Assembly: GCA_024137785.1 (NCBI GenBank)
Contig: JAHRHZ010000062.1
Span: forward strand, 34,222,207-34,286,206
Length of the DNA stretch: 64,000 nt
Source: Ginglymostoma cirratum
Taxonomy: Eukaryota
Reading direction: 5' to 3'
Part shown: positions 40,265 to 59,110 of the stretch, piece by piece
Position numbering within the stretch: position 1 is the stretch's first letter
Layout: the number at the start of each line of letters is the position of its first letter
Position numbers and translations under genes: made by a program
Notes under the pieces: generated by a model
What the model was told of the DNA's origin: nothing
The model's input: the letters and a program-made list of their open reading frames with translations, nothing else
Databases searched by the model: none

Positions 40265-40943
40265 TGATTGTAATACTGCTTGAAATGAAATTGGAATTAA
40301 TGGATGGTAGTTGTACTGTGACTCGACATGTATTGGAGTCTTCCCGTGTAGCCGTAGGAGTTTGCAGTGGTGGGGGTCTTGTGATAAGACCCAATGAAGT
40401 AGTCTGGGAGGGCAACTGCATTTTGTGAAACCTGAATTTTGTGCAACACCAACCCAGAGTTGTGCCTGAATGCAACCTGGACAGAATCGTACTCATTTTA
40501 TCCTGTAGACACTGATTCTAAGTGCTGTTTTGGAAAGGCCATACCTGGGATGTGGGACACAATACCAAATTTAGGGTGGTCCTGGATTGCGTTGTACACT
40601 GGTCTCCTGACCTAAGGCTATATCTGCCTTAGATAAAACCCAGAGCTATATAGATTGAGACCTATATTGACGTCTTGGGATTGAGATGATTTGCCTTCCA
40701 ACAACCACAAAAACAATTGTGCTGTATATGTTTCCAAACAGTTGAGAGATTTGTTCTGATTGCCACTGACCTAAGTTTTGCCAAGGCTGTTCGATGCCGC
40801 ACTGTGCCAAATGTTGCCTTGATGTCAAAGACAGCCACTGCCTTCATCTCTGGAAATCAGCTTTTTCTTTTATTCATGTTAGGACTAAGGCTTTGAGGTT
40901 AGGAGCTGAATGGTACTTGTGCAGCGCAAACTGAGCATCAGTG

Positions 40944-41930
40944 GTGTACCGCAAGGATCTGTTTTGGGGCCACTGCTGTTTGTCATTTTTATAAATGACC
41001 TGGATGAGGGTGTAGAAGGATGGGTTAGTAAATTTGCGGATGACACTAAAGTCGGAGTTGTGGATAGTGCGGAAGGATGTTGCAGGTTACAGAGGGACAA
41101 AGATAAGCTGCAGAGCTGGGCTGAGAGGTGGCAAATGGAGTTTAATGCGGAAAAGTGTGAGGTGATTCACCTTGGAAGGAGTAACAGGAATACAGAGTGC
41201 AGGGCTAATGGTAAGATTCTTGGTAGTGTGGACGAGCAGAGGGATCTCGGTGTCCATGTGCATAGATCCCTGAAAGTTGTCACCCAGGTTGATAGGGTTG
41301 TTAAGAAGGCGTACGGTGTGTTGGGTTTTATTGGTAGAGGGATTGAGTTTCGGAGCCGTGAGGTCATGTTGCAGCTGTACAAAACTCTCTGGTGCAGCTG
41401 CACTTGGAGTATTGCGTACAGTTCTGGTCACCGCATTATAGGAAGGATGTGGAAGTATTGGAAAGGGTGCAGAGGAGATTTACCAGGATGTTGCCTGGTA
41501 TGGACGGAAGGCCTTATGAGGAAAGGCTGAGGGACTTGAGGCTGTTTTCGTTAGAGACAAGAAGGTTAAGAGGTGACTTAATAAAGACATACAAGACGAT
41601 CAGCGGATTGGGTAGGGTGGACTGAGAGCCTTTTTCCTCGGATGGTGACGGCTAGCATGAGGGGACATAGCTTTAAATTGAGGGGTAACAGATGTAGGAC
41701 AGATGTCAGAGGTAGATTCTTTACTCGGAGAGTAGTAAGGGCATGGAATGCCTTGCCTGCAACAGTTGTAGACTCTCCAACTTTAAGGGCATTTTAAGTA
41801 GACGTTGGATAAACATATGGATGATAATGGAATAGTGTAGGTGAGATGGGCTTCAGATTGGTTTCACAGGTCGGCGCAACATCGAGGGCCGAAGGGCCTG
41901 TACTGTGCTGTAATATTCTATGTTCTGTGT
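40944..41930 (+). mobile_element. Relatively young 5'-truncated CR1 LINE nested in an older LINE fragment
   Basis: GVPQGSVLGPLLFVIFINDLDEG...KFADDTK RT motifs, a TTCTATG-type tail, and TCAGTG at both flanks (40938-40943 and 41931-41936). Confidence 0.93.
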
Positions 41931-43699: not shown

Positions 43700-43806
43700 C
43701 TCCATTTCATCAGAGTTTACAATGCTGAAATCCAGGATGAATTTGATGACTTAAACGACGATCAGATAGCAAAAATGGAAGACCAAATGCTAGAAGAAAT
43801 AAACAG
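43700..43806 (+). CDS. CHKA: CHKA exon 10 (LHFIRVYNAEIQDEFDDLNDDQIAKMEDQMLEEINR)
   Basis: gacag| acceptor, AG|gtaaat donor, 107 nt, frame continuous. Confidence 0.94.
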
Positions 43807-45758
43807 GTAAATATTCTGATTAAAGATAAAATCATTTCTAAATCTCCCTTTATTCTTTGTTCAATACTTGCACAAATGGTGAAGTGCAGCCTGCTTATCA
43901 TGAACTTGTAAATTAAAACCAAATTTCAAAGTGAAAAAACACCCCAGTGAATCACTTAACAAATCATTGGATATCATAATAGACTTGCTATCCATTTATT
44001 TAACACCTCTGTGCTGTGGAACCATTGGTAATGGGCAACATTTGCCGAGCCAACAGCCTGATTGAGGTTTCCACATCACGGCCTAGCAGCCGGTTCCACC
44101 ATGTGCCTAATCTCATGTTCATGCTCCAGAGGTCCATACTGTTTGCTGTCTCACTTGCCTTTCCTCTCCAACTGCACACATTTCCCTGAATTAACATTCA
44201 CCCCTGTTTGTCTAGAATGACTGTACAATGGTCTTTTGAATGTACTGCCTATTTTTAATATTTTGGAAAAAGAATTAGGCAAGTCAAGCAGCATTAAAGA
44301 ATGTCTTTGGCCATTTGCTGACCCAGTTGTCTATTTTTCACATACAGATGTAATGACATGTTTTGACATTGAGACAGCTGCATTCTTTCAGCTCTTTACT
44401 CCATGTCTTTTCATGCATGTTTCAATACTATATCCTCAGGCAAGCAGGAGAAGGCCACGAGGCCTGTTGAAGCTTATCTGCCATTCAACTAGATCGTAGC
44501 TAATTTTGTACTTTAAAGCCATTTTCCTGCACTAATCCCATAAACCTTGATTTGTTTAATGAACAGAAGTCTACTTATCTGCCTTGAATATTCTCAATGA
44601 TTGACCCTCCAAATTCCTGTGGGATAGAGAATTAAATGAATCACTTCCTTCTGAGCGAAGAAATTCTTTATTACCTCAGTCCTAAATGGCCTGTCTCTTT
44701 GAGATTGTTTCCTTGTTCCAGACACAATCCCCAGTCAGGGATTAAACAACCTGTCTGCATCTACCTTGTTGAGCCCTGTAAGAATTTTGTATGTTTCGAT
44801 TAGATCACCTCTCTCTCTCCCCTACTGTAGGGTTGGGACATGAGAGAATATAGACCTGGCTTTCCTCAAATGGTAGTGCTACCTGATCAGGGTCCCTACC
44901 CTTCCTCACTGAGAATTTGCATCAGCTGTATTTTTCAAGTCAATGAATGGGGAATTTGGGTGTTATCCCATCATTGATGTTCTAGCATTTAATGTTCCAA
45001 GCGATTGTTTTTTTTATTTTAGTTGCCCGAAATACAGTTGCAAATCTTAAAATATAGATTAAATATATTTCTGAGCTTGTGGCCTTCTGAAATGACTGCT
45101 GCCACATATGGGTAGTTTATTTTTAGGGGGCTGCACTACTTGTAAGTAACTACAGTATAAAATTTCATATTACCGGCCATCTGAGTGAGAGCTACAAGTG
45201 CAACTGATAATGGAATCTTGAATAAGATCAGTGTACTGATGACTTTGTGTGCTAATAATGCGCTGCTAGAAATATGATCTAAAAACTTGCCTAATTAGCT
45301 CTGGACTTCAAGGACTTCTTGTTCAAGTACCTTTTGGCTAGATACACAATGAAGCTCCTTCGTCAATAACACATTAAGTCAGCTACCAAAAAGAAGTCTG
45401 AAATTCTGCACTGAATATTTATATTCTCTACCTACTTGTCCCTCAGTGTTCCAGTTTTTAAATTCAGTGGCAGTTGTGTTCAGTTATGGTCAACTTTGAT
45501 GTGCCAGTCAATTAGGAGGTGCTCTGCAGTTGTATAAGAGCATTGCAATTAATAACTTGTATTTATATGGCACCTTTCATATAACTAGATAAGCCTCAAT
45601 GCTTCACAAGAGCATTCTAAAAGTGTGAAACTGAACTACCCCAAGGAGATTAGGTAGCGTAAGCAAAAGATTCAAAAAAGTGGTGTGCTTTAAGAAGTGT
45701 GTTCAGATGAGTTAGGTAGAGAGGCAAAGGGGTGTAATGAAGGGAATTCAAGAGTTTA

Positions 45759-45962
45759 GAGATAATAGGTGCTGCAGATGCTGGAGAATCCGAGATAACA
45801 AGGTGTGGAGCTGGATGAACACAGCAGGCCGAGCAGGAAATCTTGACGTTTCGGGCCTAGACCCTTCATCAGAAATCTGATGATTTCTGATCCCTGATGA
45901 AGGGTCTAGGCCCGAAACGTCAAGCTTTCCTGCTCCTATGATGCTGCTCGGCCTGATGTGTT
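45759..45962. mobile_element. Penelope family A pLTR-only palindromic element
   Basis: Two pLTR pieces in inverted orientation with a perfect 31-bp inverted repeat (45842-45872 / 45894-45924). Confidence 0.85.
45894..45921 (+). ncRNA. Minimal type I hammerhead-ribozyme-like motif
   Basis: CTGATGA-A-GGGTCTAGGCCC-GAAA-CGTC: conserved core, stem II GGGT/GCCC, and a palindromic ACGT in place of stem III. Confidence 0.6.
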
Positions 45963-47732
45963 TGTACAGGACTTCTGGATCCTGGTCCTAACCATCATTT
46001 TGAAAAGTTTGCAGATTTGGAAGGTACTGTCAAAAGAGCCTCAGCAGTTCCTACAGTGTATCTTGTAAGTGGTACATACTGCTACCACTGAGAGTCAGTG
46101 ATCTTGAAGTGAATATTTAAAGGATAGATGAGTTTTAAACCAGGGACCTGCTTCCTCCTGGACAGTATTGATCTTTTTGTGTGTTCTTAGTTACCCATGG
46201 TGAAGCAATAATAATTGGGAATGCATAAGAGTCCAGAACTAGAGAGCGCAGACAACTCTAGGATTGTGAGATAGATTATAAATAAGGATGAGGCAAGGAA
46301 GTGGAGGGATTTGTAACCAAATGTGAAACTTGAAAATCAAGTTACTGCATGTCTGGGAACCAGTGTCTGTCAGTAATCCCAACCGATAAGGGAATGGGAA
46401 TTGTGGTGAATTAAAACACTGGCAAGTAGAGTTTTGGATAACCTCCAGTTTATAGAATAGAACATGGGAGACTGTGGTTACATTCTTGGATACATTTGAG
46501 TCCAGTGTAACAGGCATAGATAAGGGTTTCAATGGCAGATAAGGTGAGACAGAGTAACCTTGGAAATTGTGATGGTGTGAATAGGAGGTTGGAAGTTTAT
46601 CTCCAGATTTAAATGTGACACCAGGGTTGTGAATGGACTAACTTAATCTGAATATTGTTACCAGGGAGTGAGATGGAGTCAGTGTAAAGGAATGGAGTTA
46701 CAGTGGAAGAGACAAAGACCAGGATTTTTAGGTCAGAATCGGGGTTCAGTGGTCTATAGTTGGATGAACTGGCCTCCATGCCTGTTTGCTGCCTCAGTCC
46801 TAACCCTAAACTATTTTCAGTGAAGTGTGGCTTGGGGACAGGTCAGCAAGCGGCCAGCTCAAGCCCAATTCTGGTAAGTTGTAGGCAGCCCACATTGGCC
46901 TGGATGACATCTGATTCTGAAGGATCACATGAAGGATCCTTCCCTAACGGAGGCATTACAGCCACCAGGCCTTACCTGCGGCTGGCCATCTCGTGGATGC
47001 ATTGCCCCTCCAGGATCCTGGCCAAGCAACTATGGCTTTTTCAAAAGTAAAGATCGACCTCGCTTCACTTGTTCCTGCACAGCAGCTTGTACTTCAGCAA
47101 TTGGGACTGCTGATCACTTAATGTGCACAGAGCCTCCTGTTGACTTGGGTACGTTCCTGCTGCTCCAAACAGTATGAAAGGTTTAGTTATATTCTCCTGA
47201 GTAAAAAGTTCTTCAAATTTTTTTGATTACAAGTGGTTTCAAAATACAAAATATCTCCAATGCTGTAATGGAAGCACAAGGAGAATAGGGTATAAGGAGT
47301 TATATCTCAGGCAGCAATAACATAAAGCCACTGCTGCAGGTTAGAAGCTTCCGTCATATCAGCCAGAATATTGAAAGTGATTTTAGTAACTTGTAAGTGA
47401 TTTTTTAACTACATAAAGCATTACTAATAAGAACTGGGATTTTAGTTATACTACATTTGACCATTTTAGTCATGTCATTTGTTTAGCAAATAAGCTGTTT
47501 CTAGGAAACCAAGTGCTTTCTTCTCAAGATAAGTGTACATCTGCTTTTGAAGTAAATTTGTGGACATGGCTTTGACTAATTTCCTTAAATTGTAAAGTGA
47601 GGGTAATGAGTCTATATAGCACAATATTTTATCAACTTGGTGGCAAGTGAAATGGCATATCATGATCTTTTGCAGTCCCGTATATGACTACATTGTGGTT
47701 CTCACAAAAGCTAATCTGTCATGATATAGTAA

Positions 47733-47873
<141 letters not shown>

Positions 47874-53460: not shown

Positions 53461-54873
53461 GGGGGTGAATAGTTGGGTCCCAATGGTCAGATTTTTCTAC
53501 CAGTTGTATTTTGCTGCTGCTTAGGTCTTCACCACCATTAAAGACTAAAGTTGTCCTCAAAAGCACAATCAGAGGGCAGGTGGCTTTGAAGTCGGGAAAG
53601 GGGCAGTATCAGGGCCAATCAGGCAGACTATGATTAGTGGGGGGCAGCTGATGCCATTGGTACAGGGGAAGCTGTGGTCACTGCTGGCCCTTTGGGCACC
53701 TTCTGGTCCATAAAGAGACTCCACTCCTCCAGCCTGAAGCCTGCTGGAAGGAAGCTGATGGTGGTCTCCTCACATGGCACTGAGACCTTCTGATACAAGC
53801 ATAATACCCCTATATAAGCAAAAGACCTGTGGGTAATCACCTGGGAGGTTTAGTTGAATTGTGGGCAGGTGGACTGTAAGCCACCTTCCCTGCCACTGGC
53901 AAAGTGGATTGGTGATGAGATTAAAGGCCTGGTTATCCATTGTGTGCTACGTACAGCCTCCAAGCCTGTCCCTAAAAGGCTTGTAAAATGCAGTATTCCT
54001 CTGTACAGCTTTGGGGTTTCAGCCTTGAGTTTTTGTGTTCAAGCCCTAAAGAGGAACAACTGAAATGAGATTCAAAATTGAGCACGACCAAATGAGTCAC
54101 AGCTCACAATCTGAGTTCCAGAGAAAGGTCTATAATGAACAACAAATCCTCTTTCTGATTGCCTTCCTCTTACTCTTGTATGGCATTACCCCTTTAGCTT
54201 CAGTTGGAAGGAGGCACTCTGATGGGTTGAGACAACCATGATGGACAACTTAGAATTTAGGATCTCTTTAAGGGCCCTCCCAATTTCTGCTCCAATTGTT
54301 TTATAAAGGTTCACTATGCCTCTATTCATAAAGACCGGCAAAAGCCCAGGTTTCAATGTGATACACTTCAAAACCGCAGCTTCGACAAACAATTGCTCAC
54401 AACTAGCTTGATCATATTATGTAAACAGCTCCATTTCTTTGAATTTGGAAAAATGTCAAAATTATTTTAAGGCCCCTAAGATTTTTCTCGGGGGGTAACA
54501 TTTCGAATTTCAGTGGCTCTTTCTTCAATTTCATCAACTTCTTTATTACATCATACAGATACATAGTACCAATAATTTGTATTTTGTGATGTATTTGAAT
54601 TCAGAAACAGAATTAGAAGAATTCATGAATAGTAGGAAGTGCAGTATTTAAATTGGTATAAGACAACAGGCATAAGTCAGCAACAAAATATTTTCTCAAA
54701 ATAACTGACACACACTTCTGCATCAAAAATTATACCATTGTCAACATATCTGCAGGCAAACAAGGTCACAGCTGTAGCAATATGCATAAGCTGGAACTTG
54801 TTAATCAGACAGCCACAACTATTTTTGCTGCAACTCTGATCTCAAACTGAGATTCAAATTTGCCAAATGATAT

Positions 54874-55542
54874 ACAACGTTGTGGAGCTGGATGAACACA
54901 ACAGGCCAAGCAGCATCAGAGGAGCAGGAAAGTTGACGTTTCGGGTTGAGACCCTTCTTCAGAAATGGGGGAGGGGAAGGGGATTCTGAAATAAATTGGG
55001 AGAGAGGGGGAGGCGGATAGAAGATGGAGAAAGGAGAAGATAGGTTGAGAGGAGACAGACAGGTCAAGAGGCGGGGTTAGAGCCAGTGAAGGTGAATGTA
55101 GGTGGGGATTGAGGTGGGGGATAGGTCAGTCCAGGGAGGACGGACAGGTCAAGGGGGCGGGATTAGTGTGTAGGAGATGGGGGTGGGGCTTGAGGTGGGA
55201 GGAATGGTTAGGGAGGCGGGGATGAGCTGGGCGGGTTTTGGGATGTCGTCGGGGGAGGGGAGATTTTGAAGCTTGTGAAGTCCACATTGATACCCTTGGG
55301 TTGCAGGGTTCCCAAGCGAAATATGAGATGCTGTTCCTGCAATCTTCGGGTGGCATCATTGCGGCAATGCAGGAGGCCCAGGATGGACATGTCATCCCCT
55401 TCCCCTCCCCCATTTCTGAAGAAGGGTCTCGATCCGAAACGTCAACTTTCCTGCTCCTCTGATGCTGCTTGGCCTGCTGTGTCCATCCAGCTCCACAACA
55501 TTTTATCTCAGATTCTCCAGCATCGGCAGTTCCTACTATCTC
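54874..55542 (-). mobile_element. Penelope-like element (family A): truncated GIY-YIG C-terminus with inverted pLTRs
   Basis: Minus-strand MSILGLLHCRNDATRRLQEQHLIFRLGTLQPKGINVDF. 14-bp TSD TTGCCAAATGATAT at 54860-54873 and 55543-55556. Hammerhead-like motifs in both repeats. Confidence 0.9.
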
Positions 55543-56849
55543 TTGCCAAATGATATGTTGTTTTGTTATAACAGCACCCACCTTTTCTGCACCGCTCCCC
55601 CCCCCAAAAATATTTGGTAGATACTGAACATAGGCAGCCTCAAGCTCGGGAATCAACATTCATTTGCAAGGAATTCAATACCTCAGGAATTTTAAGTGTT
55701 CTTGGTTTCCAGTTAGTCGAGCATTCATTTGTTAACAGGTTTAGAATTCTTCTCCCTCCCGTGCAACCTCCTTGCCTCAGCTTGCAACTTCCTTCTTTTC
55801 ATCTCTATCCTGTAGACTCATTACCACTGTATACATCCTCCCCTCCCAGGTCTTGCATCTGCTTGGATATCAGGGCAGGAAGTGGTAAGGGCAGGGCAAT
55901 GGCTGAAAAGTGGGAAAACATTTGATAAGAGACAGTTCTGTCATGTGCCTTTTCTCCAACCTCCCTACCAGGACTGAGCTGCCTGCGAGTGGAAAATGGT
56001 CATTTAGCAAGGACTTAAGCAGCTGACTGTGGCTAATTGATGAATTAATTATCTGGGTCAATTATAAAGGAAAAACAGAAGCATCTCTGGGTACTACCCC
56101 TAACCAACCAGTAGACAATATGGGTTTAAGTCGCACCTGCCGGAGAGGTGTGTCATAAAATGTCCAAACCGATTGATTAAAAATATCTTAAAAGGTGAGA
56201 CTGATGTGTGGAAGGAGACTGAGTGGTTACTAAACTATATCCACAAAGCAATGTGCCTTAATCGGGTCTTGCAGCACAGTGATATGTCCAAATCTCTGGC
56301 CCAGAAGTCTGGGTTCAAGACCCATCTCAGGCTGTGAAGGCCACAGACATGCGCCATAACACATCCAACCAGGTTTATTCAAACAAAAGTCAGTGTCTTG
56401 GTCTTCTGTCTCACCACCTGGCAAGGATCAGATTGAAAGAGAGCACTTGGCTGCATGTCAGCGAGATCTGGAGCCAGCAAGACAAGGCTTTACTCTATCC
56501 AATATGTTGTAGCAGTGAGTGAGAGCAGGCTATTGGGTCCAGCATACACTCAGTGACTCAACACATCTGATTCTTCACAAGGGTGGCCACTCTTTGCATG
56601 GAGATGGTCATAAGCACTAATGCTAGATTTAGACTCTTTTAACTGCGCTCTCCAAAGTTACACACTGCTACTAAGAATACTTACAGCTGTGCACACATTT
56701 CCCATCACTGCTCCCTAGCTTCCTTTCCGTGCATGATCCTGAGGCTCGGTGTCTGCATCCAGCTCAGCAGAGCCAGGAAGGTACTACACTCATGGCCTGG
56801 AGATTCTGTGCTGCTATCCTTGTTTCCAGCACCGGTCCTATTCACATCT

Positions 56850-57914: not shown

Positions 57915-59110
57915 GACTGGACTACACCTCACCCAGCGTCCTGCAAGAATGCGATCGCCTACTCCCATTTCCTCCGCCTCCGCCACATCTGCTCCCAAGA
58001 TGGAGCCTTCCATTCCCGAACATCCCAGATGTCCTCTTATTTCAAGGACCGTAACTTGCCCCCCTTCAGTGGTCAAAAATGCCCTCAACCGCATCTCTTG
58101 CATTACCCGCACTTCTGCCATCACACACCTCCCCGCAAAAAAAAACAAAGTCAGAATACCCCTTGTCCTCACATTTCACCCCACCAACCTCCATATTCAA
58201 CATATCATTCTCTGCCACTTCCGCCACCTACAATCCGACCCCACAACCAAAGGTATATTTCCCTCCCTATCCCCATCTGCCTTTCGTAGGGACCGCTCTC
58301 TCTGTGGCTCCCTTGTTCACTCCACACTCCCCATTGACTCCACTGCCCTGGGCACCTTTCCCTGCAACCGCAGGAAGTGATACACCTGCCCCTACACCTC
58401 CCCCCTCACCTCCATCCAAGGCCCAAAACAAACCTTCCACATTAGGCAGGGTTCACCTGCATATCTGTCAGCTTGGTCTATTGTATCTGCTGTTCTCAAT
58501 GTGGCCTCCTCTACATCGGTGAGACCAAGTGTAAACTTGGAGACCGTTTTGTAGAGCATCTGCACTTTGTACGTGACAAACAACACCTTCCAGTTGCCAG
58601 CCATTTCAAATCCCCCTCCCACTCCCTTGATGACATGTCCATCCTTGGCCTCCTCAGAGTCACAACGACAACACCCACACACTGAAGGAGCAGCACCTCA
58701 TATTCTGCCTCGGGAGCCTAAGCCCAATGGCCTAAACATGGAATTCACCAGTTTTAAAATCTCCCCACCCCTGGCCTCATCCCATGTCCAACCCTCCCTC
58801 TCATCCTCACCTCCTTGACCTGACATAACCTGTCTATCTTCTCTCCCACCTATCTGCTCCTCCCACCTCACTGACCAATCCCCACCACTCCCTACCTGCA
58901 CTCACCTATCACCATCCCGTCTACCTTCCCCAGGCCCACCCCTCCGCTCTATTTATTTCCCAACTCCCTTTCACCTCCCTATTTTGGAACATGGGTCCTG
59001 ACCTGAAATGTTAACGTTATTGCTCCTCTGATGCTGCCTGGCCTGCTGTGTTTTTCCAGCTCAATACTGTGTTGTCTCTGACTCCAGCATCTGCAGTTCT
59101 TGCTCTCTCC
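57915..59110 (+). mobile_element. Penelope-like element (family A-related): RT thumb, Cys-rich linker, GIY-YIG remnant and pLTR
   Basis: Frameshifted FLRLRHICS...RIPLVLTFHP...AFRRDRSL...FPCNRRK...VYCICCSQCGLLYIGETKCKLGDRFVEH...VASHF. The 3' pLTR resembles 55396-55542. Confidence 0.88.

Follow-up and report, generated by a model that had tools for sequence, protein, structure and literature searches.

Head-to-head Penelope-like stubs in Ginglymostoma cirratum, including a hammerhead-bearing palindrome in a choline kinase intron, as probable products of joined twin cDNAs

For endonuclease-bearing (EN+) Penelope-like elements (PLEs), an inverted truncated copy combined with a 30-40 bp tail at one end and a target site duplication (TSD) is a published layout (PMC8557442, PMC3846280), and the way in which these inverted and tailed structures form has been described as undefined (PMC8557442). 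As described in PMC3846280, the EN+ PLEs Pen2a_Av and Pen2_Av of Adineta vaga resemble the stubs reported here in having head-to-head inverted pseudo-LTRs (pLTRs) with a palindromic junction, a tail of 30-40 bp on one end only, TSDs and the occasional capture of host DNA; copies lacking a TSD are also reported there. In contrast to those elements, the present family consists of two ORF-less stubs of about 70-130 bp in more than 1,000 copies, its 5' ends pile up sharply at the start of hammerhead stem I, and its TSDs measure 13-17 bp as compared to the 8-10 bp given for published PLEs (PMC3846280, PMC8557442). The Poseidon element PAc of Anolis carolinensis (PMC11167929) likewise has two 3' ends that bound a tail and a hammerhead in its pLTR, and neither the published account of PAc nor the stubs give a sign that cleaved RNA serves as template. 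The anole PLE, which is predicted to be dimeric and uses uncleaved RNA as template, was found in vitro to nick and extend both strands, with starts at two tail sites, while joining of the two products is not among the results described (PMC11167929).

The minimal type I hammerheads described for PLEs (PMC4209133) share with the motifs considered here the core, a bulge before position 10.1, the pair G10.1-C11.1, a palindromic 15.2-16.2 and the lack of a helix III. In that account, monomers were inactive and dimers weak, and PLE hammerhead activity needed protein in a later study (PMC11167929). Here, in contrast, the motifs face away from each other on opposite strands, leaving one motif per transcript, and the sense copy of the palindrome under study lacks helix I. 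Finally, non-LTR retrozymes (bioRxiv 10.64898/2026.07.22.740005) are similar in their origin from a PLE pLTR, their type I hammerhead and their lack of an ORF, but by definition two or more of their units follow one another head-to-tail, each with its own hammerhead, whereas the arms found here are an inverted, head-to-head pair whose junction is made anew.

We analyzed a stretch of 64,000 nucleotides from G. cirratum, hereafter the window, in which a first-pass annotation had pointed out a palindrome of two hammerhead motifs. Sequence comparison confirmed the exact 31-bp inverted repeat that had been claimed: 45842-45872 is the reverse complement of 45894-45924, extension by even one base fails in either direction, and the two arms are separated by a spacer of 21 nt. 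The inverted repeat continues imperfectly at 45831-45880/45886-45935 (92%) and at 45811-45836/45944-45969 (85%), and the separate inverted repeat attributed to the spacer is also present, as 10 nt at 45868-45877/45882-45891 that overlap the end of the left arm. This palindrome is the center of a 205-bp pair of head-to-head PLE ends (pLTRs), and the inserted block as a whole measures about 433 bp (45758-46190), rather than the roughly 200 bp of the unit initially proposed. The whole block is an insertion, since in a related species, whose contig is about 93% identical, 45743 is joined to 46186 without it. No further locus joining the two flanks was found among those compared. Its parts and the neighboring exons are given below, with arm positions counted from hammerhead C3 as +1; L177 denotes a sister palindrome on the same contig.

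43700..43810 (end approximate), plus strand: choline kinase alpha exon upstream of the host intron
45758..45876, minus strand: long (tailed) pLTR arm, from -3 to about +129
45758..45791, minus strand: PLE tail of about 35 bp, bounded by the two preferred 3' ends (+90-95 and +127-134)
45845..45875, minus strand: minimal type I hammerhead motif with a 3-bp stem I, assigned from sequence, features as described in PMC4209133
45873..45893, no strand: junction spacer, with pieces templated from arm ends, resembling the spacer of L177
45894..45962, plus strand: short pLTR arm, +1 to +69, its terminal base the same as in the right arm of L177
45894-45921, plus strand: sense hammerhead core with a broken stem I, within the short pLTR arm
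45965..46190, plus strand: 226-bp flank probably derived from L177, matching G000:C62:34024806-34025031 and starting with the right copy of the L177 TSD
47781..47860 (end approximate), plus strand: choline kinase alpha exon downstream of the host intron

Of the coding exons of the host gene, the third-last (at about 43700) and the second-last (at about 47781) flank the palindrome. The host intron had been named CHKA intron 10. Its assignment to the alpha gene held for the one exon compared, which matched choline kinase alpha chains best (60.7 bits, vs. 52.1 for choline/ethanolamine kinase), while the number 10 follows the human numbering. An upstream intron contains a translated fragment (40900-41100) that resembles a reverse transcriptase (RT), presumably of LINE type judging from its RT motif. 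Contigs of a public run match the left junction (45200-45787) and positions 45996-46600 without any difference, thus covering both edges rather than the spacer, and loose ends of these contigs accumulate at 45758 and 45792-45794. By these matches, the palindrome is not an assembly artefact at its edges, a possibility that the first-pass annotation had allowed for. Such palindromes do break short-read assemblies, as is apparent from N gaps at the center of several sampled copies.

The arm itself is abundant: exact copies of a 28-bp arm sequence number 22,605 in the genome, compared to none for the reversed control. Across the genome, 1,296 back-to-back junctions were found with exact 13-bp anchors; they constitute a lower bound, with some of them duplicated across assembly gaps. 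At 1,097 exact pLTR-ORF junctions the arm runs on into an ORF, so that the end sequence also precedes it, as in the partial tandem that forms a pLTR, and at one locus (L101) the element is continuous on both sides of the pLTR. Four ORF fragments beside arms, each from a different copy, were matched to protein domains; one exceeded the cut-off for RVT_1 and one that for GIY-YIG, with weaker matches for the other two, and in one locus (L059) the RT and endonuclease regions share a frame in which a YID motif precedes GIY-YIG. Given the 1,097 junctions and the RVT_1 and GIY-YIG matches of the adjoining ORF fragments, the arm is the pLTR end of an EN+ PLE with an RT followed by a GIY-YIG endonuclease at the C terminus, in agreement with the Penelope-like origin that had been proposed, and the head-to-head inverted, 5'-truncated copies of the family have the EN+ PLE layout. 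The window holds four more related insertions besides the main palindrome. An inverted insertion of a related subfamily (54869-55543) has a 14-bp TSD and a tail-less arm that extends about 380 bp further 5' than the tailed one, so that the arms are non-nested. Another inverted family insertion (1336-2051) has a 400-N assembly gap (1406-1805) at its center and the region of the 12-mer GAACAAACCGACC at both ends, likely as its TSD, and 58993-59110 is a solo arm from the same superfamily that is older and more diverged and whose hammerhead is degraded.

The 3' ends of the arms fall mainly at +90-95 and at +127-134, which are the two boundaries of the tail. A tailed arm was paired with a tail-less one in 44 of 47 classifiable pairs (p=1e-10 compared to an independent draw), a count that leaves aside L001-L030 (30 loci obtained with an asymmetric query), four complex loci and gap-ended pairs, as well as four pairs with an intermediate 3' end. 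The palindrome samples are non-random, having been picked by patterns at the hammerhead. A search for further copies with the same spacer and TSDs of their own had been suggested as a check; TSDs of at least 8 bp were indeed found in 62 of 91 pairs (mostly 13-17 bp, mode 14-16), but the spacers did not recur, with 48 distinct junctions among the 54 pairs sampled. Single-arm insertions occur too, as seen for a solo tail-less arm (L052) that starts from the 5' hotspot described below and has its own 15-bp TSD.

At their other end, the arms pile up at -4 to -2, i.e. 2-4 nt ahead of the hammerhead core. Nine more templated upstream bases are kept by 10,502 of the 22,605 exact arms (46%), while the nine bases after that are kept by 8,401 of those 10,502 (80%), and about 40% of arms therefore end within the first 9-nt upstream window. 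Unselected bystander arms behave similarly, with 29 of 79 ending at -6 to +1 (18 of 56 among those at least 84% identical). Truncated arms also tend to carry an extra T: four or more T were found in 56 of 175 truncated arms vs. 2 of 61 continuing arms (p=1.4e-6). Both C and G occur as an extra base before ATTT, for which templating from the partner arm is possible and a cap-derived G was considered. ORF-internal starters and head-to-tail chimeras stop at the same hotspot. In five of these chimeras (L097, L100, L111, L112 and L115), a copy that starts at the hotspot and extends 250-400 nt into the ORF precedes an arm that begins again at the hotspot, in L097 within a single TSD, which suggests template jumps between RNAs. 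The pile-up is likely to mark the 5' end of the element's transcript, and the CCATTTC found there resembles an initiator. For Penelope of D. virilis, the promoter and start have been placed within the pLTR (PMC2377424). Alternatively, a structure- or sequence-caused RT stop ahead of the C-rich tract could create the pile-up instead of an RNA start. Splicing was rejected as its origin, since neither a constant upstream exon nor an AG at the site was seen. A second 5' hotspot at the cleavage site was rejected as well: a peak at +33 was due to a divergent base in the reference, the starts of partner arms are spread over the whole motif (by eye, among 100 listed of 1,601 junctions), and 3 of 79 bystander arms end near this site.

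We then consider how the two arms came to be joined. Junction inserts of at least 6 nt match an arm end by at least 6 nt in 22 of 30 cases (shuffled mean 2.5, maximum 8). Of 60 TSD-flanked pairs, 43 are level and 17 uneven, and in 12 of the latter it is the tail-less arm that extends further 5'; in other words, neither arm is a plain copy of the other. Diagnostic sites differ within pairs at 29 of 334 positions (8.7%), compared to a background of 3.7% and to 30% for shuffled partners (54 of the 91 pairs), and 33 of the 54 pairs have no diagnostic difference between their arms, while 7 of 54 differ at two or more diagnostic characters vs. 1.1 expected. For most pairs, a single RNA or a single source is thus indicated, and roughly a fifth contain foreign sequence that may stem from a second RNA or from later conversion; the excess discordance within pairs may reflect later gene conversion. 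Fully independent RNAs for both arms were rejected as the rule, given the strict discordance of 8.7% (13.3% in a loose count) vs. 30% between pairs. The stubs contain several source haplotypes, which match those of the long copies.

We infer that the stubs are probably twin cDNAs that were primed on opposite target strands, both ended at the likely RNA 5' end and were then joined, and that the window copy is a chimera. The PLE enzyme, as a dimer, would start at both tail sites, mostly of one RNA or one source locus, and would prime two cDNAs on opposite target strands. Both would extend to the likely RNA 5' end just ahead of the hammerhead, after which their 3' ends would be end-joined, presumably in a polymerase-theta-like manner by their resemblance to such joints. 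One cDNA per tail start, joined at the 3' ends, would give exactly a palindrome with one tailed and one tail-less arm. In LINE-1 twin priming, two primings on opposite strands lead to an inversion, and the cDNA may finish on a genomic copy; there, however, the two cDNAs copy different parts of the RNA, whereas here they copy the same part, resulting in a palindrome. The full scenario is about evenly balanced in our judgment: the stubs would be fossil products of PLE insertion, in which a dimer starts on opposite strands, 13-17 bp apart, from the two tail sites of a single RNA, transcripts start at the first stem I base, a slip of one T occurs and the products are end-joined, while a free cDNA end may jump to another RNA or to a neighboring genomic copy and thereby duplicate host DNA.

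Arkhipova and colleagues have instead suggested that the mirror arm results from self-priming or fold-back on one template, with the tail produced when the endonuclease trims one end (PMC3846280). The 33 pairs with identical diagnostic sites fit this proposal, as do spacers templated from arm ends, which a snap-back would yield, and non-nested arms are possible under it if the endonuclease trims either end. A distinct prediction is that plain fold-back of one cDNA always leaves the tailed arm further 5'; this is the opposite of what was found in 12 of 17 uneven pairs, and the window insertion at 54869-55543 is also non-nested, by about 380 bp. The two RT start sites at the tail ends shown in vitro (PMC11167929) and the seven pairs with two or more discordant characters likewise speak against this model, which we consider unlikely. 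MITEs are copies with one common internal sequence and symmetric terminal repeats. The first-pass annotation had considered a non-autonomous, MITE- or retrozyme-like unit, and amplification of the palindrome as a unit from a master copy would account for the existence of 1,296 or more similar units, about 230 bp long and in most sampled cases with TSDs, and for the part of a sister palindrome that the window copy inherited. We nevertheless regard it as very improbable, as 48 of 54 junctions are distinct, arm lengths form a continuum, the ends are made asymmetric by the tail on one of them, the arms are head-to-head rather than in tandem, and the several source haplotypes match those of the long copies.

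Within the family, the window copy stands out by its right-hand part. Among 40 listed loci, the 226 bp at 45965-46190 have a match at one other locus only, the flank of L177 (94%, 14 differences). L177, itself a member of this palindrome family, lies 243 kb from the window copy on the same contig and strand and has a 13-bp TSD on both sides. The right arms of the two copies end at the same base, the copied flank begins with the L177 TSD, and among 54 other pairs only one spacer is as similar to that of the window copy as the spacer of L177 is. On the basis of these resemblances in sequence, L177 is the likely donor of the right arm and the 226-bp flank, about 300 bases in all. Two findings weigh against this: an assembly gap lies inside the L177 palindrome, and at polarised sites of the flank L177 has seven derived changes vs. 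two in the window copy. Several T-to-C changes occur in L177:1120-1726 (at least four polarised ones in the flank and a further one each in left arm and spacer), and a further family arm is found about 1 kb from this palindrome (L177:2652-2787). The left arm of the window copy starts at the element's own tail end and carries the variant 32A, which is absent from both left-arm pieces of L177, making duplication of the whole L177 palindrome unlikely; 32A and 116C form no haplotype. It also has a 14-bp deletion between two GAGCAG repeats near 45831, and the same deletion is seen at another locus (L013:1500-1720), probably by recurrent slippage. Around the block, no exact repeat over 5 bp was found that could be a TSD.

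For this copy we lean slightly towards a new cDNA that finished on its neighbor. The fresh cDNA (the left arm) would have annealed to L177, the spacer, right arm and flank of L177 would then have been copied as DNA, and the copied end would have rejoined the target by microhomology. Copying at the DNA level is favored because of the short distance between donor and target. Repair of an earlier, normal insertion is a possible but less likely origin. It is also conceivable, though improbable, that a read-through RNA initiated at the L177 stub supplied the right arm and flank (3' transduction), which were joined to a normal tailed cDNA. Such an RNA would explain why copying set in at the presumed RNA start and stopped at a GTGTTCTC site that loosely resembles the 3' ends of the element itself, and host DNA capture by PLEs has been reported (PMC3846280). 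It is at odds with a source and target only 243 kb apart in a 4.36-Gb genome, with the lack of a TSD and with the spacer common to L177 and the window copy; moreover, among 21 gap-free pairs without an adjacent TSD, no displaced TSD enclosing host flank was confirmed (six displaced matches, partly examined).

As for the hammerheads, an intact core was seen in both arms, as had been claimed: each has CUGAUGA, a bulged A, a 4-bp stem II (three G-C, one U-G), GAAA, CG and UC. All core features of the PLE-type minimal type I design that had been recognized are present in both (CUGANGA/GAAA/UH, the bulge before 10.1, G10.1-C11.1 and the palindromic 15.2-16.2). The proposed stem I of 2-3 bp applies to one strand only: the minus-strand arm has 3 bp (two U-A, one U-G), but in the plus-strand (pre-mRNA) arm the two core-adjacent positions place C opposite A, which breaks the stem. 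A search with the Rfam hammerhead covariance models, also suggested beforehand, gave no match at E ≤ 10 at the window locus or three other loci; Rfam matches to miRNA precursors were dismissed, being below the gathering score and produced by the hairpin. Among 275 arms, stem II changes are one-sided (U-G in 239, U-A in 34) except for one two-sided case, core G12 is changed to A in 25 of 275 inserted arms, a CpG-like rate, and non-CpG subfamily variation within the motif falls at N7, loop 2 and 11.4. Of 275 arms, in part chosen for this very feature, 104 have the exact core, and intact cores are common among young copies.

The palindrome had further been envisaged as a self-masking ribozyme, which, if retained, would regulate the choline kinase pre-mRNA. 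Its two intact cores and intronic position would suit such a role, as would a very stable hairpin: the predicted fold of 45758-45962 has -111.2 kcal/mol (z -11.9), with none of 200 shuffles as stable, in line with the sequestration of the motif that had been anticipated. However, stem I is lacking in the sense arm, the contig of a related species does not contain the block, G12 is lost in part of the family, intact cores are in any case frequent in young copies, and minimal PLE hammerheads are described as inactive or weak (PMC4209133) or as requiring protein (PMC11167929). Because of the missing sense stem I, the predicted full sequestration by the hairpin, the lineage-limited presence and the weak or protein-dependent activity of related motifs, ribozyme function at this locus is unlikely, and we hold a retained regulatory ribozyme to be extremely unlikely. 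By their sequence, the hammerheads appear to be passengers, likely inactive in the pre-mRNA, and the locus is most likely a dead intronic remnant.

The layout of an inverted pLTR with tail and TSD is already known; what we add are counts over the whole genome, the test for non-nested arms, the extra T, the test of concordance between arms and the donor locus. In the literature searched, mostly openly accessible papers, we found no report of shark PLE mini-palindromes, of the 5' pile-up or of PLE twin priming. With its tens of thousands of short copies, the stub family constitutes a test set that bears on how the inverted and tailed structures of PLEs form. It makes sharp predictions about the RNA start site, paired RT starts, nick spacing and non-nested arms, which can be tested in the system of PMC11167929. 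The window copy, in turn, indicates that stubs of this kind are able to duplicate the host DNA beside them across a few hundred kb.
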